32,841 nt of DNA from an uncultured Nitrospirales bacterium (GTDB taxonomy: Bacteria; Hydrogenedentota; Hydrogenedentia; Hydrogenedentales; CAILVY01): contig CAYXPO010000002.1 of assembly GCA_964466925.1 (NCBI GenBank), positions 1 through 32,841 on the forward strand. Direction: 5' to 3'. Position 1 is the stretch's first letter, and every line of letters starts with the position of its first letter. The notes below the pieces were generated by a model. It saw nothing but the letters and a program-made list of their open reading frames with translations, searched no databases and had not been told where the DNA came from. The position numbers and the translations under genes were made by a program. This document shows positions 3,653 to 25,850 of the stretch, one piece after another.

Positions 3653-4129
3653 GGTCAACCTTAGCCTTTTCTCACCCTAGGGCGTGTCTCAGTATAATTC
3701 TTTCCTCAAATAAGCATACCGAAATTAGGATGAAATGTCCAGAAACTTCCAAAACCGCCATACGTGTTAACTCATACCTCTATAGTAATCTTTTCGAGGC
3801 GTTTCGTTACTGCTAAATGTGTAATAGGATACGAAATGATCACCGCGACTTCAACTATCAATAAAAAGGACGGAGTTGAAGGACGCAGTGAAGAAAACAG
3901 CGCGGGAAGGGAAATTGTTGACAAGGGGGAAATCGGAGGCGGTGCCGGATATTTCAACCATGCTTTAGGCTCCGTAAATCCCGCAAAATGACCGGTAAAT
4001 TCGCGTAGAACACTCCGCATGCGGCATCACAAACCCACACGAATACCGACATACAGTTGCTTTGGCCCCTAATCCGCTCTGGTTTAATTGATTTTTTCGG
4101 TTTGGAGGGGATTGGGGGTTTTTGAGGGG

Positions 4130-4149
4130 TTTTCCACAAGTTGTCCACA
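4130..4149 (+). promoter_or_regulatory. Two tandem DnaA-box-like 9-mers (TTTTCCACA AG TTGTCCACA)
   Basis: Each 9-mer is one mismatch from TTATCCACA. They are same-orientation, 2 nt apart, and sit in a 0.98-kb non-coding divergent region. No further good boxes lie nearby, so function is uncertain. Confidence 0.25.
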
Positions 4150-4631
4150 GGTGGGGAAAACGTATTCCCGGAGGTCTTTGGACAGGCGCTTGATAGGCAA
4201 TAAGATATTGTTGCGATTGGATTTAGTACATAGACAGTTCTTTAATGCCGCAGGCGCGGCGGGAGTGGAGAGGTGCGGGATCGGGGAAGTAATCCACCGT
4301 TCTTTTATGGGAGTCGGTAATACTGAAAAAGGAGGGTGAGGGCTAAGTAGTTACGGGGCTTGGAGCTGGGAGGAATTCAGAAGTGCTTGCGCGGCGGGAA
4401 TTAACCATGTAAGGAGGGAAAACGAATCCGTTGGGCGCGAAATACTTTTTGGGCATGGCCGTTTTCTTGGCCGGAGCCTTGTCGGAAATTTATTGACAGG
4501 ATTTGAGAAGAAGCGTAGTTTATGGAGGTGTGTATGGTGGCGGCGGCGCGGACGGAATTTATTTTGGCTGAAAATTTAGTTTCTTTTTGCTAAAAAAAGG
4601 GCTGTTTTTTGCAACGTGGTTGAGGCGGATC

Positions 4632-5183
4632 ATGCGGATCATTGCGGGTCAAGCAAAAGGCATTAAATTGTCGCCTCCACCGAAGGAGTTGGCAATTCGG
4701 CCGACGTTGGACCGGGTGCGGGAAGCGTTGTTCAGTATTTTGATGCCCCGGCTGGAGGGGGCGCGGTTTCTGGACCTGTTCGCGGGGACGGGGGCGAACG
4801 GGATTGAGGCATTGAGCCGGGGGGCGGCGGCATGCGTGTTTGTGGATGGGGATGCCCGGGCACTTAAGCTGGTCCGGGAGAATGTGGTGCGGGCGAAATT
4901 GGAGCGGGGTGCGGAGTGTCTGAAACTGCACATTCCGAAAGACCTGCGCCTCTTGAAGGGACCGTTTGATGTCATTTTCGCGGACCCGCCGTATGCCTTT
5001 GGGGAGCATGAGGGGGTGTTGAAGGGATTGCAGACATACCACCTCCTGGCGCCGGAAGGGGTATTTGTCCTGGAGCATGGGCGTAAAGCGGACCTGCCGG
5101 AACAGGTGGAAAACCTGGTTCGGACCCGGCAGGCGGCCTACGGCGATACTTTGTTGTCGTTTTACGGTTGGAGAACGCCGTGA
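4632..5183 (+). CDS. rsmD: 16S rRNA (guanine966-N2)-methyltransferase RsmD
   Basis: 183 aa starting MRIIAGQAKG. SAM-binding motif DLFAGTGANGIEALSRGA and catalytic FADPPY. GAGG lies 6 nt upstream of ATG 4632. The 15 extra N-terminal codons of the tracked ORF (from a TTG at 4587) are rejected. Confidence 0.9.
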   Translation: MRIIAGQAKGIKLSPPPKELAIRPTLDRVREALFSILMPRLEGARFLDLFAGTGANGIEALSRGAAACVFVDGDARALKLVRENVVRAKLERGAECLKLHIPKDLRLLKGPFDVIFADPPYAFGEHEGVLKGLQTYHLLAPEGVFVLEHGRKADLPEQVENLVRTRQAAYGDTLLSFYGWRTP

Positions 5184-5209
5184 TGCTTTTATTATCCGAA
5201 ACCTTCACC

Positions 5210-5327
5210 CCTTTGGAGTGCGGGAGCTTGCTCCCGCTTTTTCGCAGTTTGCCGCCAACCTAAAGCGGCAGCAAGCTGCCGCAGTCCAAAGGGGGAAACA
5301 GCGGCAGCAAGCTCCCGGAAGCCAAAG
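5210..5327. repeat. REP cluster 1 (one plus-strand copy followed by two minus-strand copies)
   Basis: Copy A, 5210-5242 (+): CCTTTGGAGT GCGGGAGC TT GCTCCCGC TTTTT. Copy B, 5262-5292 (-), in its own sense: CCTTTGGACT GCGGCAGC TT GCTGCCGC TTT. Copy C, 5296-5327 (-), is a degenerate hybrid of the two variants with a mismatched stem. Confidence 0.85.
5220..5242 (+). terminator. Intrinsic-terminator-like hairpin formed by REP copy A downstream of rsmD
   Basis: Perfect 8-bp GC-rich arms GCGGGAGC/GCTCCCGC around a TT centre, followed by TTTTT, 37 nt after the rsmD stop codon. Confidence 0.5.
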
Positions 5328-5542
5328 CAGCAGCTTGCTTTATCATTGTTGAGAATACCACGGCCGCGAAAAAATGCTCTCTTAATCGGTGCAAATTCAT
5401 GGAATCCGTGTTTTCTAAAAGTACCTTCATCACATCTTGGCGGCTTTGCGTGAGTCGCTCAAGCCTCAAGTCTTACGCCTCACGCCTCTCTTGGGTTGCG
5501 GGTGTGCAGCTCTGGGTATACCAATTACCTCGAATTTCCCCG

Positions 5543-5886
5543 TTCCCGCTTATACGGGAATGATGAACTGTAGAATAGGCAAAGTGTAACTTTGCAAACA
5601 AGTGCGTTCCAAAGTAAAACTTTGGAACGAGAGGAAATGGGTGCCGGGATCGGGTATTGGGGAACAACAAGAGGGTTCGGGCTTGAAAAAGGAAAGTCCA
5701 CGCGAAGCCGCCAAGGTGCAAAGAAAAAGAAGTCTTTTATAATTTGGAGGCAAAATGGTTAATGTGTCCCGTCTTTGTGTCCTCACCCCGTCAGGGGTGA
5801 AATGTGAATAGCCGGGGCGTCGAGTCCCCGAGACCCCCGGAAATCTCACCCCTCTCGCTAGATATTCGACCCCGAAGCGGGTCGAA
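5543..5886. repeat. Field of unrelated short palindromic (hairpin) units in non-coding DNA
   Basis: Five hairpins: TTCCCG-CTTATA-CGGGAA (5543-5560); GCAAAGT-GTA-ACTTTGC (5579-5595); GTTCCAAAGT-AAA-ACTTTGGAAC (5606-5628); TCACCCC-GTCA-GGGGTGA (5783-5800); TTCGACCC-CGAAGC-GGGTCGAA (5865-5886). No credible ORF lies between 5340 and 5790. Confidence 0.7.
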
Positions 5887-6657
5887 CAAAAAGAGGGCAA
5901 AGCCTTCTTTCATAGTCACCACCGGGTCGGTTGTGGCGGTATAGGTGCCCGCCGCCACCCAAATTTCTTTATCCAAGGTGGCGGTATTGAGACCTTCCTG
6001 TATCGAACCCAAGGGCGAATCCCAAGAGGAACCATCACCATCGCCTCCTTGCACTACATACACAATCCCGTTGACATCAAATAATGCCGCTACATTAATA
6101 TCGTTTGTCATCTTGCTATCCGTGCGTGGATTGTCGGTTCTTCCGTCACTCCATTGGACGAAATGGTAATGGGGGTTCGGTATGGCCGAGACCTTGCTTC
6201 CGGAACCGCCGCAAACCACTGTCTGCGGAGAAATACCGGAAATGGAGCCGTTGGCGTCCGCGGAATACGTGAGAGTATGTTCACTGGATTCATGCGAACC
6301 AGGTCCTGGGGCGAAGATATCTTCGGAATCGCATTGGGTGTGGTAGCCACTGGAATTGAAGAATTGAATCAAGCGGAGGAGTTCGGAAAGGCTGATGTGC
6401 CAGTCTTGCGGGATGTAATCGCTGTTGTGCGGCGTACAACTCGTATCTCCGGGGCCGGGCGCGAAGCTATCTTCGGTTCCTGTTTCACAATGGAATCCGT
6501 TTGAGTTGAAGAATTGGATGACCCGGAGCAATTCGCTCAGGTTGATGGCGTAATCTTTATCGGTGTCAGCGGAATGGTATTGCGCCAAGGCAGGGAATAC
6601 AACGCACGTCCACGCAACACATCCGATGGCGATACCCGCCATCCTACAGCTAATCAT
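5791..6657 (-). CDS. Secreted repeat protein, probably a 3'-truncated remnant of a beta-helix surface protein
   Basis: 288 aa from ATG 6657, which has a strong AAGGAGG upstream. Signal peptide MISCRMAGIAIGCVAWTCVVFPALAQ. Two tandem modules of about 45 aa (D..INLSELLRVIQFFNS.G.H...ED.FAPGPG). One InlB/Listeria-Bacteroides-type repeat (TLTYSADANGSISG...HYHFVQWSDG). Then the start of a right-handed beta-helix domain (VYVVQGGDGDGSSWDSPLGSIQEGL...EIWVAAGTYT). The family-like sequence stops near 5885 and the last 30 codons read through hairpin repeats. The 40 extra N-terminal codons of the tracked ORF are rejected. Confidence 0.75.
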   Translation of the reverse strand: MISCRMAGIAIGCVAWTCVVFPALAQYHSADTDKDYAINLSELLRVIQFFNSNGFHCETGTEDSFAPGPGDTSCTPHNSDYIPQDWHISLSELLRLIQFFNSSGYHTQCDSEDIFAPGPGSHESSEHTLTYSADANGSISGISPQTVVCGGSGSKVSAIPNPHYHFVQWSDGRTDNPRTDSKMTNDINVAALFDVNGIVYVVQGGDGDGSSWDSPLGSIQEGLNTATLDKEIWVAAGTYTATTDPVVTMKEGFALFLFDPLRGRISSERGEISGGLGDSTPRLFTFHP

Positions 6658-6776
6658 AGGCCCTCCTTTCTCACGGCAAAGCCGCTTTGAGACGTTGCCG
6701 TGTTTCGCACACGTACTATCGCAGGGATTACAAGCCATGGGCATGGGGAAGGAGAATAGCCGGGGCGCCCGGCGCA

Positions 6777-6928
6777 CCTTTGGAGTGCGGAAGCTTGCTT
6801 CCGCTTTGGGTTGGCAGCAACCTGCGAAAAAGCGGCAGCAAGCTGCCGCAGTCCAAAGGGGTGAAAGCGATGGTAAGTTACCACCATCCTAAGGGTAAAA
6901 AGCGGCAGCAAGCTGCCGCAGTCCAAAG
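6777..6928. repeat. REP cluster 2 (one plus-strand copy followed by two minus-strand copies), abutting the RAYT 3' end
   Basis: Copy D, 6777-6807 (+): CCTTTGGAGT GCGGAAGC TT GCTTCCGC TTT. Copy E at 6827-6859 (-) and copy F at 6897-6928 (-) both read ..CTTTGGACT GCGGCAGC TT GCTGCCGC TTTTT in their own sense. F ends 1 nt before the RAYT stop codon. Confidence 0.9.
6897..6919 (-). terminator. Intrinsic-terminator-like hairpin formed by REP copy F immediately after the RAYT gene
   Basis: On the minus strand, GCGGCAGC TT GCTGCCGC is followed by TTTTT, starting about 10 nt after the RAYT stop codon. Confidence 0.45.
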
Positions 6929-7459
6929 TCAGAAGTCGTCAGGGACGGATACTTTGTCCCATTTGAAGGATAGGACGGTGTTACGGAAAGATGCCTTTGC
7001 TTCCCGCATGAACCACGCCATTGAACACCAAGGATACTGCTCCGCATTTTGCACCAAGCCGTGTTTAACGGGGTTGTTGTGAACGTAGTTGAGGCGGGCG
7101 AGATAGCTTTTTTCGAAGGTCAGGCAGGTATCGCGATATTGAAACCATACTTGGCGGCCCGGGGTGTTGTCTTGTACGTTCAGCGCGCGGGCCGTGAGGG
7201 AATGCACAGATTGAAGCATAGGTTTCAGGGTTGTTGCATCTTCGGGCGCATGGGCGACAAGGTGGTAATGGTTCGACATCACGGCCCATGCCTGGAGTTC
7301 CCATCCGAAGGTGGTGGCTTGTTCAAACAGTGCCGAAAGCACCAAAGACATCCGTTCGGGGGTGTTGAGGAGTCGTTTCTTGGCATGTGTGGAGGCTGTG
7401 ATGAAATATGCGGCGCCGGGTACGAAAAGATGTGAGGGTGAATGCGCCCAATGGGTCAT
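6929..7459 (-). CDS. REP-associated tyrosine transposase (RAYT; IS200/IS605-type Y1 HUH transposase)
   Basis: 176 aa from ATG 7459. HUH motif in SNHYHLVAHAP. Catalytic-Tyr region YVHNNPVKHGLV. N-terminus AAYFITASTHAKKRLL is typical of the family. REP clusters flank both sides. The tracked ORF extends to 7519, but those 20 codons (..ESGSKLPHSK..) translate REP copy G. No clear SD precedes either start, so the start is uncertain. Confidence 0.85.
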   Translation of the reverse strand: MTHWAHSPSHLFVPGAAYFITASTHAKKRLLNTPERMSLVLSALFEQATTFGWELQAWAVMSNHYHLVAHAPEDATTLKPMLQSVHSLTARALNVQDNTPGRQVWFQYRDTCLTFEKSYLARLNYVHNNPVKHGLVQNAEQYPWCSMAWFMREAKASFRNTVLSFKWDKVSVPDDF

Positions 7460-7469
7460 GTACGCATCA

Positions 7470-7601
7470 TCTTTGGAGTGCGGGAGCTTGCTCCCGCTTT
7501 CGGAGGTGTCTGTGTTCATTTCAGGGATAGTATATTCTGTGGGTAAAACGGCAGCAAGCTGCCGGAAGAAAAAGCGGTAGCAAGCTACCGCAGTCCAAAG
7601 G
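7470..7601. repeat. REP cluster 3 (one plus-strand copy followed by two minus-strand copies), upstream of the RAYT
   Basis: Copy G, 7470-7500 (+): TCTTTGGAGT GCGGGAGC TT GCTCCCGC TTT. Copy H, 7545-7568 (-), has an intact 7-bp stem CGGCAGC/GCTGCCG and a diverged tail. Copy I, 7569-7601 (-), in its own sense: CCTTTGGACT GCGGTAGC TT GCTACCGC TTTTT. Confidence 0.85.
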
Positions 7602-21092: not shown

Positions 21093-21557
21093 TTATAAAC
21101 CATCGTCCAGATGACTGGGCGGGACCGGCAGCGTGCCTGCGTCCACGCGCGCGGGCATGTCCTGCAACAACGGACGCACCACCGCGCTGTAGGTGAACCA
21201 GCCGAACAGGAGCAGCGCGCACACGGTGGCCCAGGCCAGTGCATCCCGGGTCCAGCGGGGACGCCGCCACGTGGACAGAGAACGCGCGTTGAAGAACGGA
21301 CGTTCTCCCGGCGCATCGTGCAGGCAGGCGCGAAATTGGTCAAGAAACGGTTCCGGGTCCAGATCGAGAAACGCGCAATAGCTGCTGATGAACCCCATGG
21401 CATAGGCTTTGATTGGCAGCGCCTCGATACGGCCCTCTTCGATGGCGCGCAAGTATTCAATCGGCACATGCGTGTGATCATGCGCCTCTTGAAACGACAC
21501 ACCAAGGGCTTCGCGCTGCGTGCGGAACGCCTCGCCGGGAAACCGTATCTGTTTCAT
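21093..21557 (-). CDS. RodZ-like helix-turn-helix membrane protein
   Basis: 154 aa. N-terminal Xre/HTH_25-like segment (FRTQREALGVSFQEAHDHTHVPIEYLRAIEEG), the RodZ-typical KAYAMGFISSYCAFLDLD, and one TM (ALAWATVCALLLFGWF). The start overlaps the ftsK stop by 4 nt. Confidence 0.6.
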   Translation of the reverse strand: MKQIRFPGEAFRTQREALGVSFQEAHDHTHVPIEYLRAIEEGRIEALPIKAYAMGFISSYCAFLDLDPEPFLDQFRACLHDAPGERPFFNARSLSTWRRPRWTRDALAWATVCALLLFGWFTYSAVVRPLLQDMPARVDAGTLPVPPSHLDDGL

Positions 21558-24043
21558 GCCACTTCATCCTCCGCCGGCGGGGGCGCGTTGACCAGTATCT
21601 CCCGCGCCTTGCTGCCGGTATGGGGGCCCACAATGCCCCGCAGCTCCATCATGTCAATGAGCCGGGCCGCTCTAGTGTACCCTACTCGCAACCTTCTTTG
21701 CACCATGGATATGGAGGCCTGCCCTGTTTCTAGCACGACGCGCACTGCTTCGTCAAATAATGGATCGCTTTCGTCGAGCAGCTCCTCCAGACTTTCCTTG
21801 GTTTTGCCGAAATTCTCGATTTCGTCCCGGTACTGCGGGGGGGCCTGCGTCTTCAAATACAGGATGAGCGAGTTCATTTCCTGGTCGCTTACAAACGCGC
21901 CCTGGAGGCGTGTGGGCTTGGATTGCCCCGCCGGCAGGTACAGCAGGTCGCCCTGTCCAATCAGCCGCTCCGCCCCGATTTCATCCAGGATGCACCGGGA
22001 GTCCACCCGGGAGGAAACCTGGAACGAGACCCGCGCGGGGAAATTGGCCTTGATGACGCCGGTCAGCACGTCAACCGACGGACGCTGCGTCGCGATGATG
22101 AGATGAATGCCCACGGCGCGGGCGAGCTGGGCCAGCCGCGCGATGGCGTCTTCCACTTCCGCCCGGGCGAGCATCATGAGGTCCGCCAATTCGTCAATGA
22201 TGCACACAATATAGGGAAGCTTGCGGACCAGGTGGAACGATTGCGCGGGGCTGTCGTCTTCGCCTTCCATTTCGATCTCGCCGTTCTCCACGCTCTGGTT
22301 GTACACCTCGATGTTGCGGACGCGCAGTTCCGCGAACAACCGGTAGCGTTCCTCCATTTCGCTGATCAGCCAGGTCAGCGCGGTGGAGGCTTTTTTCGGG
22401 TCCGTCACCACCGGCGTGATCAAATGCGGGATGTCGTTGAAGATGGAGAGTTCCACCATCTTGGGATCGATCAGCATGAGCTGCAGTTCGTCGGGCGTGA
22501 ATTTGTACAGCAGGCTTGCCAGCAGGGCTTTCACGCACACCGTCTTGCCCGCGCCCGTGGCGCCGGCCACCAGCAAATGCGGCATGGACGTCAAATCCGC
22601 AATCTTCACCTCCCCCGCAATGTCTTTGCCCATGGCAAGATTCAGCTTGCCCTTGCTGCGGGTGAACGTGTTGCTGGCAAGCAGCTCGCGAATGAGCACC
22701 TGATCACGCTCCGCGTTCGGCACTTCGATGCCCACGCGGCCCTTGCCGGGGATCGGCGCCTCCACGCGTACCCGGTGCGCTTTCAAGGCCAGCGCGATAT
22801 CGTCCGCCAAGGCAAGAAACCGGCTTACTTTTATGCCGGGCGCGGGTTCCAGTTCAAACCGCGTGATCGTGGGGCCGCGCGTGATGTCCGTCACATGCGC
22901 CTCCACGCCAAAGGTCTGCAAGGTGTCTTCCAACAGCGCGCTGGTGGCGCGAAGCTGTTCGCCCAGGTTCGGAATCACGCGGGGCGTCGGAAGATCGAAC
23001 AAATCAATCGTCGGCGGCGTATACTGCCGGGGATATTCGTAATCCGGCGGAAGCTCTTCCATCGCCACCACCTTGCGGCGCGGCTTCCGCGCGCGGCGCT
23101 TGGGTTCCACCGAAAACGAGCCGTTGCCCGTGGGCATCAGTTCCAGCTGACCCTCGCTGGGCACCGGGTCCAGCTCTTCCGCCACCGCCCGCGGTGTCTC
23201 CCTGGTGGTCTCCTCCAGTGCGGCCGCCGGCGCGGGCATCGGCGGCACCGCGTCAAACGGCAATTCCTGTTCCACCGGCTTGGGTATGATTTGAGGCATT
23301 GGACGCGGCTTGGGTGCGGGCGGCTCTTCTTTCGCTTCGATCCCGGACGTTTTTTCCACCCCGCTGGTATGCAACCGCAATATCGGCGGGCGCTTGGTCA
23401 AGGTATCCGCCGGGGTGAGGTCTTCGGTGCGTTTTGGCTTCCGGAACAGGGCGAGAAAACCGTTCAGCAGGATCAGGTTGCCCCGCAGTAAATAAACCGT
23501 GAATTGCTTGGCCGCCACCAAAACATGCACAAATAAGAAATCTGTGGATAACAATAGGCCAATCGCCAAAAAAGTAAACCCCACCACGTTCGCCCCCACC
23601 AATCCCAGAAACGGCACAAACAATCGGTCCGCCACAAACGCCCCAAAGGCCCCGCCGGGCTGTGCATTTGATAATCCCGTGTGAATATCTATCTGTAATA
23701 TGCCCGCCAAAGAACACACCGTCACAAACATCCCCAGAAACCGCGTCGGGAGCCGGTCCAACGGCCGGTGCGTAAAGAGCATCAACCCCCATATAAAGGT
23801 AATGGCATACAGGATGTGCGCCGCATCCCCCACCAGAATCGCCAGCACCGTCGCCAGCAGCGCTCCAGGCATGCCCAGTAAATTGGGTATGGCGGACATC
23901 CCGTCCAGATAGCGCCGGGTGTGTCCTTGTGAACGATAATCATCGGTTACTAACGCCAAAAACAGGAGAATCGTGAGACCCAATACCAGAATGCCCAGTA
24001 TTTCAGATTTTCTATCGCCGCGTATCTTTTTGGCCTTGCTCAC
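21554..24043 (-). CDS. ftsK: DNA translocase FtsK/SpoIIIE
   Basis: 829 aa with a GTG start and GAGGGAG 9 nt upstream. N-terminal 4-5 TM domain and a Pro-rich linker. Motor domain with Walker A GATGAGKTV and Walker B IIDELADLMM. C-terminal gamma winged-helix (ASISMVQRRLRVGYTRAARLIDMMELRGIVGP). Confidence 0.95.
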   Translation of the reverse strand: MSKAKKIRGDRKSEILGILVLGLTILLFLALVTDDYRSQGHTRRYLDGMSAIPNLLGMPGALLATVLAILVGDAAHILYAITFIWGLMLFTHRPLDRLPTRFLGMFVTVCSLAGILQIDIHTGLSNAQPGGAFGAFVADRLFVPFLGLVGANVVGFTFLAIGLLLSTDFLFVHVLVAAKQFTVYLLRGNLILLNGFLALFRKPKRTEDLTPADTLTKRPPILRLHTSGVEKTSGIEAKEEPPAPKPRPMPQIIPKPVEQELPFDAVPPMPAPAAALEETTRETPRAVAEELDPVPSEGQLELMPTGNGSFSVEPKRRARKPRRKVVAMEELPPDYEYPRQYTPPTIDLFDLPTPRVIPNLGEQLRATSALLEDTLQTFGVEAHVTDITRGPTITRFELEPAPGIKVSRFLALADDIALALKAHRVRVEAPIPGKGRVGIEVPNAERDQVLIRELLASNTFTRSKGKLNLAMGKDIAGEVKIADLTSMPHLLVAGATGAGKTVCVKALLASLLYKFTPDELQLMLIDPKMVELSIFNDIPHLITPVVTDPKKASTALTWLISEMEERYRLFAELRVRNIEVYNQSVENGEIEMEGEDDSPAQSFHLVRKLPYIVCIIDELADLMMLARAEVEDAIARLAQLARAVGIHLIIATQRPSVDVLTGVIKANFPARVSFQVSSRVDSRCILDEIGAERLIGQGDLLYLPAGQSKPTRLQGAFVSDQEMNSLILYLKTQAPPQYRDEIENFGKTKESLEELLDESDPLFDEAVRVVLETGQASISMVQRRLRVGYTRAARLIDMMELRGIVGPHTGSKAREILVNAPPPAEDEVA

Positions 24044-24384
24044 TTCGTACCGCTCCCTCGATTCATCTCCTTTTAGTGCACTCTATGGTAACAAATATCT
24101 TCTTTATATGCAACAAAATATTGTGGTCGGCTTGTGATGCCCACAACCTGTTGAAAATAAAAGGCTTCCACGCCCATTAAGTCGTATTTGTTGTGTAGAT
24201 TTGTTTGAGAATACAATCTGTAGTGCGCTTTTGTTTCCTATTTTGCGAAATTATCCCTATTGTCACGCCCCATGGTGGCCACTTTTGTCATATAGCAGGG
24301 CTCCCCTTGTGTGGCGATAGTCGCAAAGGGCCCTTGATGTGTCATGGCATTGCAACGGCTATATGCTGTATATGAATTTTATAA

Positions 24385-24400
24385 ACACAATATATAGTGG
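24385..24400. promoter_or_regulatory. Best NrdR-box-like palindrome (15/16 to the consensus as I recall it)
   Basis: ACACAATATATAGTGG against acaCwAtATaTwGtgt; only the last base differs. Confidence 0.55.
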
Positions 24401-24448
24401 ATTGTTCTTTTCTGTGGATTGTGTCATGTGTCGGCCAAAGGAACAATA

Positions 24449-24494
24449 CAACAATATATTGCGGCTTATATTTTTGCACCACAATATATTGATT
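24449..24494. promoter_or_regulatory. Tandem pair of NrdR-box-like palindromes, centres 30 bp apart
   Basis: The cores CAATATATTG at 24452-24461 and 24482-24491 are identical. The spacing is close to the roughly 31-32 bp reported for tandem NrdR boxes. Confidence 0.45.
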
Positions 24495-24749
24495 TCTATA
24501 AAAACAATTTCCAGGCACCAAAGCACATTATTTTGTATGTGAAAAACTTATATATACAATATATAGTACTCTAGCGATTTTGGCGCCAGTAGTACCAGTC
24601 CAGCGGCAGAAAAGCGGTAGAAATGAAAAACGACCACTATATATTCGGTATATTCCGTATTTTATTGTTATATCTACGGCTATTTTGGGTTTTGTTGCAT
24701 TGTTTTTTATACTTGCGAAAAAAGCTAACAACGCTTACAATACAGCCCT

Positions 24750-25850
24750 ATGAAAACCTTATGGGCATGGAGCGTGTTTGGAGGGCTGTTGCTCCGCTAT
24801 TTGGCCTACAAGGCCGGGCGGGGACGCCGGCCCATGTTTACGGACCGTCTGGACGCCATGCCGCTTGTGGGGCGGCAGGTGTTGCGTTGGAACCGGTTGC
24901 GGGTGGTGAATCCGGAACAATGTCCGCAATCGTATCCGGCGGTGTTTGTGGGCAATCACATTGGCCTGGATGATCCCAATTATATCTGGCCGGCCATTTA
25001 TTATTCGAGCGGCATGCGGGTGGTGGTGCATTTCATGATGCGGGATGATTTTTTCCGGGGTTTCCCCTGGGATTTCCTTCCGGTGAACGTGGATGACCTT
25101 GCGGAGATGTGCGGGGCGGTCCGCATTTCGCGCGACAGTGTTCAGTGGTCGCAACTGAAGCCGTTTTTGACCATTCTGGAAACGCCGGGCGCGTTTTTGA
25201 TGTTTCCCGGGCGGACCCGCAGCCGCAGCGGCCTGCCGATGGAATACCGCGAAGGCATTGAAGAGCCGGGGGGCACGTCGTTTTTTTTGGCGCACGCGCA
25301 GCGCCGCATGAAGCAGCCGGTGCCCGCGGTGCCGATTGCGCGCACCACGCATCCCGTGACGAAACGTTGCGCGGTGGTTTTTGGGGCGCCGTTGTATCTT
25401 GATGCGAACGCGGACCGCGCGGCGCAGCGCGAGTTTGATCAACAACTCCCCGTGCACATTTCCAATCTGATCGAAATTCACGCTCCGCATCTGGTGTGTG
25501 CGATGCTGTACTTGCATTGCCTTCATCGCGGAACTGCACCGGTGGAGATTGCCGCGCTGGCGCAGGCGGTGAAATCCATCGCCGGGAAATTGGACGGACG
25601 CTTTGTGGAACCCGACACGCTGACGCGGACGGAAGAGGAGGTGCGGCGGTGCGTGCGGTGGCTGCACAAGCGCGGCATGGTGCGCGTCACGGGATCGGCC
25701 ATTCATCCGGAAGCCGCCAAGGTTTTGTCCGTTCCGGCGTTGGACACGAAATACCGCAAGCGCAACCCCGTCAAGTTTTACGCCAATCAAATCCTGCCGC
25801 TTACCGATGTCATTGCGCGTATCGAAGACACCCTGCCGGACCTGCGCTAA
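24750..25850 (+). CDS. Lysophospholipid/glycerol-phosphate acyltransferase family protein (PlsC-type) with a C-terminal extension
   Basis: 366 aa. Acyltransferase block I GNHIGLDD (NHxxxxD) and block III FPGRTRS (FPEGTRS-like). About 150 C-terminal residues lie beyond the catalytic core. No obvious SD precedes ATG 24750. Confidence 0.8.
   Translation: MKTLWAWSVFGGLLLRYLAYKAGRGRRPMFTDRLDAMPLVGRQVLRWNRLRVVNPEQCPQSYPAVFVGNHIGLDDPNYIWPAIYYSSGMRVVVHFMMRDDFFRGFPWDFLPVNVDDLAEMCGAVRISRDSVQWSQLKPFLTILETPGAFLMFPGRTRSRSGLPMEYREGIEEPGGTSFFLAHAQRRMKQPVPAVPIARTTHPVTKRCAVVFGAPLYLDANADRAAQREFDQQLPVHISNLIEIHAPHLVCAMLYLHCLHRGTAPVEIAALAQAVKSIAGKLDGRFVEPDTLTRTEEEVRRCVRWLHKRGMVRVTGSAIHPEAAKVLSVPALDTKYRKRNPVKFYANQILPLTDVIARIEDTLPDLR

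Follow-up and report, generated by a model that had tools for sequence, protein, structure and literature searches.

The window analyzed here, a 32,841-nt stretch of contig CAYXPO010000002.1 read on the forward strand, contains a 706-bp intergenic island (24044–24749) that separates the GTG start of ftsK (21554–24043, minus strand) from the ATG with which a PF01553 acyltransferase gene begins (24750–25850, plus strand). The island has 38% G+C, compared with ∼60% in the flanks and the rest of the window, and it carries a cluster of palindromes that resemble the boxes bound by NrdR in front of ribonucleotide reductase (RNR) operons. What do these palindromes control, and which protein reads them, in a window that has no nrd or nrdR gene? 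The explanation that fits best is NrdR-type repression of the operon formed by ftsK and a rodZ-like gene, with a lineage-specific expansion of the operator. We assign this statement as a whole a probability of roughly 0.6.

The core CWATATATWG was relocated at six sites in the island (starts 24114, 24388, 24452, 24482, 24557 and 24637), and the 16-mers of these six strong boxes begin 3 nt before the cores (24111, 24385, 24449, 24479, 24554 and 24634). A first-pass annotation of the island, made from the sequence, had listed six palindromes at these positions, with 12, 15, 12, 13, 13 and 13 of 16 matches to acaCwAtATaTwGtgt and with spacings of 274, 64, 30, 75 and 80 bp. Positions, scores and spacings were all borne out, and so were the AT-rich character of the island, the two divergent flanking genes (by Pfam), the absence of an RNR gene nearby and that of a credible open reading frame (ORF), the island holding no ORF conserved in the closest relative. 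Cores with at most one mismatch numbered 7, against 1.0 expected from whole-window shuffles; dinucleotide-preserving shuffles of the island alone (n = 2000) averaged 0.30 cores, with 3 as the highest count, against 6 observed. All six positions that are key to an NrdR box (C4 A6 A8 T9 T11 G13) occur together at 7 sites in the 32.8-kb window, 5 of them inside the island, and at zero sites in the remaining low-GC stretches; within the window, then, such words are not common in AT-rich DNA, which had been named as a possible refutation. We consider it very likely that the boxes are functional sites.

A published NrdR site consists of two 16-bp, partly palindromic boxes with C4 A6 A8 T9 T11 G13 and an AT-rich center (PMC13584703), and the consensus is quoted as acaCwAtATaTwGtg (PMC4009431). 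At least 63% A/T is expected between C4 and G13, and both boxes are required (PMC13584703; PMC12051234). The linker is 15–16 bp, with 14–17 bp accepted in searches and 14 bp tolerated in vitro (PMC13584703; PMC12051234), and the sites overlap the RNA polymerase site (PMC13584703). Four weak boxes that had been missed earlier (24141, 24211, 24356 and 24523) are the only other sites of the island with at least five of the six key positions, and three of the four sit 29–31 bp from a strong box (P ∼7e-4), which indicates that the copies are mostly tandem pairs and not scattered singles. In total, the island contains four tandem pairs and two single boxes spread over ∼540 bp; five boxes match 6/6 key positions and five more match 5/6. 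The five strongest have A/T at 8/8 positions between C4 and G13. The linkers of the pairs are 14, 13, 14 and 15 bp, the 13-bp pair lying just outside the published 14–17 range, and two pairs satisfy the regular expression that the NrdR authors applied to RNR promoters. The earlier view that the copies do not fit the pair pattern is partly mistaken, since four tandem pairs with 13–15-bp linkers exist.

The pair nearest to ftsK lies on the promoter of that gene. The elements concerned are:

21554..24043, minus strand: ftsK, 829 aa, with 4TM, alpha, motor and gamma domains (Pfam); first gene of the operon and the proposed regulated gene.
21093..21557, minus strand: rodZ-like gene, with an HTH_25 domain and one transmembrane segment; overlaps the ftsK stop.
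24085..24113, minus strand: ftsK promoter, −35 TTGCAT (24113→24108), 17 nt, −10 TACCAT (24090→24085).
24111..24126: proximal box of the ftsK operator, CAACAAAATATTGTGG, in ftsK orientation CCACAATATTTTGTTG; 6/6 key positions.
24141..24156: distal box of the ftsK operator, CCACAACCTGTTGAAA, in ftsK orientation TTTCAACAGGTTGTGG; 5/6 key positions, 14-bp linker.

The ftsK promoter proposed earlier (TTGCAT, 17 nt, TACCAT) is present on the minus strand and is overlapped by box 24111, and the relatives read share the layout TTGCnn, 17 nt, TAnnAT. In ftsK orientation, the proximal box runs into the −35 hexamer, its last 3 nt serving as the first three of the hexamer, and the pair therefore overlaps the RNA polymerase site as published NrdR sites do. 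The distal box (CAACCTGTTG) has A/T at 5/8 positions (62.5%) between C4 and G13, borderline relative to the 63% rule. It is 100% conserved in L001, the nearest relative with the same locus (acyltransferase 89% identical), and homologous distal boxes are found in other relatives.

The relatives were gathered by FtsK protein identity, independently of the motif, and their upstream DNA was then read. The exceptions are L036 and L039, which came from a motif-based metagenome scan and are thus ascertained by the box itself. The organism is a member of the Hydrogenedentota. Of the 3138 FtsK homologues with E ≤1e-100, the closest carry names such as Candidatus Hydrogenedentes, and one relative contig is labelled Hydrogenedentiales. 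The resulting set of 15 ftsK promoters (genomes or contigs) counts the window and L001, and FtsK identity ranges from 58 to 100% where measured. A proximal box with 6/6 key positions, fused to the −35, was present in 15/15 of these Hydrogenedentota ftsK promoters. Its form, nnACAATATTTWGTTG (CTACTACATATTGTTG in L009), is identical or near-identical across the set, and in all 15 its terminal TTG opens the −35 TTGCnn, followed by 17 bp and the −10 TAnnAT. The box starts 60–92 nt ahead of the annotated or inferred start codon (∼176–178 nt in L132 and L136). In 11 of the 15, a distal box that keeps at least 4/6 key positions lies upstream of the proximal box, separated from it by 14–16 bp. The upstream arrangements are:

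Window and L001: FtsK identity 100% (window) and not determined (L001; acyltransferase 89%); distal box TTTCAACAGGTTGTGG, linker 14.
L004: FtsK 87%; distal box TTTCAATAGGTTGTGT, linker 14.
L005: FtsK 75%; distal box TTTCAACATTTAGCGA, linker 15.
L007: FtsK 69%; distal box TATCTATATTTAGTGA, linker 15.
L010: FtsK 70%; distal box TTACAACATTTTGTGT, linker 14.
L011: FtsK 66%; distal box GGCCTATATCTAGTTA, linker 16.
L132: FtsK 74%; distal box ATCCCACATTTAGTAA, linker 15.
L133: FtsK 83% over 61% of FtsK; three boxes in phase, linkers 16 and 15.
L134 and L135: FtsK 62% and 58%; full box 62–63 bp upstream, with a half-site between.
L009 and L136: FtsK 63% and 61%; weak distal boxes only.
L036: FtsK not determined; distal box GCACAACAGGTAGTGG, linker 15.
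L039: FtsK 72% over a 265-aa partial match; distal box TCACTATGGATAGTGC (4/6), linker 15.

The gene upstream varies from genome to genome (acyltransferase, unknown 666-aa protein, TauE, HMGL-like, rpsU, priA, pagL-like or URO-D-like), whereas the rodZ-like HTH_25 gene follows ftsK in every relative with gene calls, which indicates that the operator belongs to ftsK. No RNR gene was found in the window or, for those relatives that have gene calls, within 2.5–10 kb of ftsK; the presence of the operator at ftsK is therefore not explained indirectly by fusion to an RNR gene. We regard ftsK as the likely conserved target of the boxes. The earlier suggestion that deoxyribonucleoside triphosphate (dNTP)-sensing control extends to chromosome segregation or membrane synthesis genes thus gains comparative support for its first half, from the ftsK operator, but not for its second, the acyltransferase promoter being box-free.

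In one subclade, a three-site arrangement precedes ftsK (L133 2846–2924, L134 2859–2937 and L135 2358–2435). The order is full box, half-site (ATTTAG half only) and proximal box in steps of ∼31–32 bp, and the outer full boxes are two pair lengths (62–63 bp) apart. Gene order was also recorded: in most relatives ftsK is followed by the short RodZ-like HTH_25 membrane protein gene and then by pgsA-alr-yacP; the window and L004 have glycosyltransferase and Wzz genes in place of pgsA-alr-yacP, and a pgsA-like gene lies at 1986–2537 of the window. The same rodZ-pgsA linkage is found in B. subtilis. The best NCBIfam match of the HTH_25 protein was RodZ at 38.6 bits, far under the cut-off of 375.

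Which protein would bind the operator? The key positions, the AT-rich center, the tandem layout at three helical turns and the overlap with the polymerase site all fit NrdR, which has been reported in 77% of bacterial genomes and whose members bind heterologous boxes in vitro (PMC13584703). An NrdR signature search of the window and L001–L011 (12 loci) was negative, and no nrdR gene or nrd promoter of the lineage was retrieved, so that motif and architecture are what identify the binding protein; on these grounds NrdR is its probable identity.

The metagenome scan with ACAATATTTWGTTGCA returned mostly chance 16-mer matches. The informative ones were the ftsK promoters of L036 and L039 and an scpAB-nrdD promoter (L016, L030, L079 and L089, of which L089 covers the proximal box only). 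In that gut-metagenome bacterium (∼55% G+C), the box pair CCACAAGTTCTAGTGG, 15 bp, AAACAATATTTTGTTG, then TTGCAT, precedes scpA-scpB (L016 8131–9830; also L079 5801–7500, and L030 on the reverse strand). The nrdD gene (ATP-cone and NRDD) starts at or overlaps the scpB end, giving a tight scpA-scpB-nrdD operon, and no second strong tandem pair was found near nrdD in L016, L079 or L030. The position of the pair ahead of this operon means that this type of box does accompany an RNR gene, and in the gut bacterium an RNR gene appears to be united with chromosome condensation genes in a single operon under NrdR control.

Another DNA-binding protein might read the palindromes, either a lineage-specific LexA-like SOS repressor or the HTH_25 protein acting as an autoregulator. 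The failure to find nrdR in the 12 loci leaves room for such a protein, the essential promoter of E. coli ftsK is the DNA damage-controlled SOS promoter dinH (PMC4080785), and the gene of a helix-turn-helix (HTH) protein, predicted to be co-transcribed, lies directly after ftsK in every relative with gene calls. The boxes, however, agree with NrdR sites at all six key positions and in a layout, two boxes three turns apart, that is specific to NrdR. They read ACA...TGT and not the E. coli CTGT-N8-ACAG, and a fixed tandem spacing is no LexA trait; direct reading excludes a LexA box of the E. coli type, a consensus that may not be that of this phylum. The HTH_25 protein has a transmembrane segment and is RodZ-like, and the HTH of RodZ binds MreB and is not known to bind DNA. 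The same box pair also stands ahead of an nrdD-containing operon in another organism. We consider a different regulator unlikely.

The remaining boxes lie between the ftsK pair and the acyltransferase gene:

24211..24226: single box, ATACAATCTGTAGTGC; 5/6 key positions; core identical in L001 and partly kept in L004.
24356..24400: central pair A, CGGCTATATGCTGTAT (5/6), 13-bp linker, ACACAATATATAGTGG (6/6; 15/16 to the consensus).
24449..24494: central pair B, CAACAATATATTGCGG, 14-bp linker, CCACAATATATTGATT; both 6/6.
24523..24569: central pair C, GCACATTATTTTGTAT (5/6, tolerated A6T), 15-bp linker, ATACAATATATAGTAC (6/6).
24634..24649: single box, CCACTATATATTCGGT; G at position 14 after C4, for a C–G distance of 9 bp.
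24713..24741, plus strand: acyltransferase promoter, TTGCGA, 17 nt, TACAAT; ends 8 nt before the ATG; no box overlap.
24750..25850, plus strand: acyltransferase, PF01553, 366 aa; right-hand neighbor.

Conservation of the island in related genomes, proposed earlier as a check, proved to be of two kinds: the proximal ftsK box is general, as described above, and the central boxes (24356–24649) are found only in the window and L001. Box 24211 has no partner with at least 5/6 key positions, the weak candidate at 24180 having 4/6. The first box of pair A is a perfect 6/6 in L001 (TGCCTATATATTGTAT) and the linker there is 14 bp; pair B passes the published NrdR-pair regular expression and keeps its spacing in L001; the second box of pair C is conserved in L001 and its partner is not. 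No partner was found for box 24634, and L001 has TATCAATATATTCGGT at the corresponding place. The consensus of 15 central boxes is nnACAATATATnGTnn. In the window–L001 alignment, the boxes are conserved blocks amid a diverged, indel-rich spacer: over 24240–24700, identity is 80% in the box cores and 52% outside them (permutation p = 0.0005).

L004, whose FtsK is 87% identical, has its ftsK and acyltransferase genes in the same divergent arrangement, and it keeps the ftsK pair and a degraded box 24211. Because L004 is without the central boxes, these are dispensable. The central array is a recent gain, or it was lost in L004. Selection maintains it in two genomes, and neither flanking promoter needs it. 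The L001 contig, CAYYRW010000026.1, is syntenic with the window at this locus and belongs to a metagenome-assembled genome titled ‘uncultured Nitrospirales bacterium’; this label, or the binning, looks wrong, the FtsK relatives of the window being named Hydrogenedentes or Hydrogenedentiales.

The acyltransferase is probably not a target of the boxes. Only two matches to the lineage-type promoter (TTGnnn, 16–18 nt, TAnnnT) are conserved in both the window and L001, namely those of ftsK and of the acyltransferase gene. In L001–L004, the acyltransferase promoter has the form TTGCnn, 17–18 nt, TAnAAT, ending 8–10 nt before the ATG. The idea that the central boxes are acyltransferase operators was rejected because that promoter is proximal, near-leaderless and box-free, and because the homologues in L002, L003 and L004 do without the array; in L002 and L003 the homologues have other neighbors, and their upstream regions are short and box-free. 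The promoter sites are at 24713–24752 of the window, ∼5962–6004 of L002, ∼5961–6004 of L003 and ∼5690–5640 of L004 (reverse strand). The acyltransferase gene lacks a Shine–Dalgarno sequence, which suggests a leaderless or near-leaderless mRNA. A protein scan of metagenomes with the acyltransferase yielded no further relatives, and the protein itself has no exact match on record.

Several observations weigh against our explanation. The remaining spacer of L004 is shorter and unrelated and contains zero boxes of the 24356–24649 set. None of the promoters that the window and L001 have conserved is overlapped by a central box, and the central pairs therefore lack the overlap with a polymerase site that characterizes NrdR operators. 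Long-range helical phasing among all boxes gave a Rayleigh-type statistic below the 95% null. The linkers of the window are 13–15 bp, one shorter than the 15–16-bp optimum; in vitro, linkers of 13–14 bp cost ∼1.3- to 3.5-fold with E. coli and S. coelicolor NrdR and 13- to 72-fold with the S. pneumoniae protein (PMC12051234). The negative NrdR signature search has to be counted here as well. Finally, NrdR is regarded as RNR-specific, and the sole claimed non-RNR target, topA, is doubted (PMC12051234).

The central boxes could instead be the operators and promoter of an unannotated transcript, a small RNA (sRNA) or a long acyltransferase 5′ leader, co-regulated with the nrd genes. The boxes contain −10-like TATATT or TATAGT hexamers, and the window and L001 have in common two weak promoter-like sites whose −10 falls within a box, one ending at 24567 (RTGAAA, 17 nt, TATRGT) and one ending at 24645 (TAGAAA, 16–17 nt). 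The central region is, moreover, under selection. The lineage-type promoter form, by contrast, is conserved only at ftsK and the acyltransferase gene, the between-box sequence is only ∼52% identical and contains indels, and the region has no Rfam match, no conserved terminator and no conserved ORF. A known RNA family was rejected on finding no Rfam match at gathering thresholds and only chance-level microRNA matches (E 0.9–4.8); a tRNA search of the window returned none, and the search for a terminator gave one weak match only. The micropeptide locus entertained in the first-pass annotation is disfavored: six-frame comparison of the window island with that of L001 gave only short matches, in all frames, over a conserved DNA block, and the indels of the island alignment are not multiples of 3. 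We think an sRNA or leader transcript of this kind improbable.

Less probable still is a decoy function, in which several tetramers bound beside ftsK would titrate the repressor and buffer its free pool for the whole regulon. A genome would be expected to have fewer sites at its handful of nrd operons than the three extra pairs plus singles supply, the presence of as few as two pairs in front of a gene has been called atypical (PMC12051234), and the boxes are conserved yet lie on no conserved promoter. Such a role, however, would leave the same sequence pattern as cooperative repression, NrdR titration arrays are without precedent, and the array is missing in the close relative L004.

The last alternative, that nothing here is functional and ACAATATAT-type words arose by chance in an AT-rich spacer between divergent genes, or that the island, adjoining ftsK, is a replication origin or dif site, is already refuted by the shuffles, by the box-free low-GC regions elsewhere in the window and by the retention of boxes amid diverging spacers. 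For an origin, no DnaA box TTATCCACA was found at ≤1 mismatch in 24044–24749, and the GC skew tracks the gene strand with no origin-type switch. For a dif/XerCD site, the 28-bp pattern with the ATAATRTAYATTATGT core had no match at ≤3 mismatches in the whole window, and a resemblance seen by eye in L001 failed, the pattern search being empty. Insertion of a mobile element gained no support either: the only flanking inverted repeat lacks conservation in L001, and L004 has unrelated sequence, not an empty site. That repeat, a perfect 11-nt inverted repeat (ATGCAACAAAA / TTTTGTTGCAT) at 24108–24118 and 24690–24700, brackets nearly the whole island and consists of the ftsK half-box plus −35, in opposite orientation near the acyltransferase gene; it is probably due to chance, because it is not conserved in L001.

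Returning to NrdR-type repression of the ftsK-rodZ-like operon, the island would be an extended transcriptional control region of NrdR-type operators whose core is the tandem pair 24111–24126 / 24141–24156. In the published model, NrdR tetramers loaded with dATP and ATP bind DNA, and with ATP only the protein forms oligomers that do not (PMC13584703). When dATP rises relative to ATP, tetramers carrying both nucleotides would occupy the two boxes of the pair and put a kink in the DNA, the −35 would be covered, and RNA polymerase would be blocked. A build-up of dNTPs would then silence the ftsK-rodZ-like operon along with the nrd genes. As replication uses up the dNTPs, the operon would be freed from repression, the ATP-only oligomers of NrdR would stay off the DNA, and expression would proceed along with that of the RNR genes. 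In the window and L001, the upstream DNA would have gained three more tandem pairs and two singles (24211–24649), and the central pairs may serve as auxiliary operators, offering up to three further tetramer sites for cooperative or looping reinforcement or for local storage of NrdR.

How does this arrangement compare with known systems? As in the RNR promoters of E. coli (nrdAB, nrdHIEF and nrdDG) and S. coelicolor (nrdAB and nrdRJ), the ftsK operator consists of 16-bp partial palindromes with the key positions and an AT-rich center, placed ∼three helical turns apart and overlapping the polymerase site. It differs from them in preceding a ftsK-rodZ-like operon without an RNR gene, in the 13–15-bp linkers of the window and in the number of boxes, up to ten per intergenic region. 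By every sequence criterion, the site belongs to the NrdR-box class; the contextual one, an RNR operon downstream, sets it apart. The Listeria monocytogenes nrdAB promoter also has more than one tandem pair upstream, and its authors suggested that the extra pair tightens or fine-tunes repression (PMC12051234). In Listeria there are two pairs and an RNR operon, whereas here four pairs and two singles are spread over ∼540 bp in front of a non-RNR gene, the extra pairs being confined to one sublineage.

The scpA-scpB-nrdD operon resembles ours in its proximal box ACAATATTTTGTTGCA, a distal box 15 bp away and segregation genes downstream; there, however, the link to segregation comes through operon fusion with nrdD, and the Hydrogenedentota ftsK operon has no RNR gene. 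We know of no precedent for four NrdR pairs and two singles. Occasional replication-related NrdR targets were reportedly predicted by Rodionov and Gelfand in 2005. In Pseudomonas aeruginosa, topA is likewise a non-nrd DNA-metabolism gene with an NrdR-like promoter box (PMC4409342); its mechanism has been questioned because NrdR needs two boxes (PMC12051234), and topA has a single one, in contrast to the two-box operator on the −35 of ftsK, with its proximal box in 15/15. E. coli dinH offers another parallel, a repressor site on the main promoter that ties ftsK to the state of the DNA (PMC4080785); there the repressor is LexA, the signal DNA damage and the site CTGT-N8-ACAG, and here the motif is of the NrdR type and the signal presumably the dATP/ATP ratio. 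A literature search for NrdR linked to ftsK or Hydrogenedentes found nothing relevant.

Two other regions of the window were noted. Positions 3660–4590 form a stretch of ∼900 bp without a credible ORF, with a G+C fraction of 0.43–0.53, a strong positive GC skew and no Rfam or tRNA match; it contains two DnaA-box-like 9-mers in direct orientation 11 bp apart (TTTTCCACA at 4130 and TTGTCCACA at 4141). An ORF at 6929–7519 (minus strand), with a marginal match to an IS200-like Y1 transposase (PF01797; 23.0 bits, at the cut-off), adjoins a low-GC stretch at 5000–7500 (∼53% G+C).

These data suggest that the phylum ties ftsK expression to DNA-precursor levels. A more general form of the proposal, for which we see slightly less than even odds, is that (i) NrdR of the Hydrogenedentota would not be RNR-specific, with the ftsK-rodZ-like operon a member of the dNTP regulon across the 15 genomes or contigs; and (ii) one sublineage would carry the largest cluster described, with at least 4 tetramer sites in 540 bp acting as a cooperative or titrating super-operator. 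If correct, this would be the first well-founded non-RNR target of NrdR, found by comparative genomics and parallel to the control of E. coli ftsK by LexA (dinH), and the multi-pair array would offer a natural substrate for distinguishing cooperation of NrdR tetramers from titration. Some bacteria would then couple the completion of chromosome segregation to the same dATP/ATP signal that also sets the supply of dNTPs.

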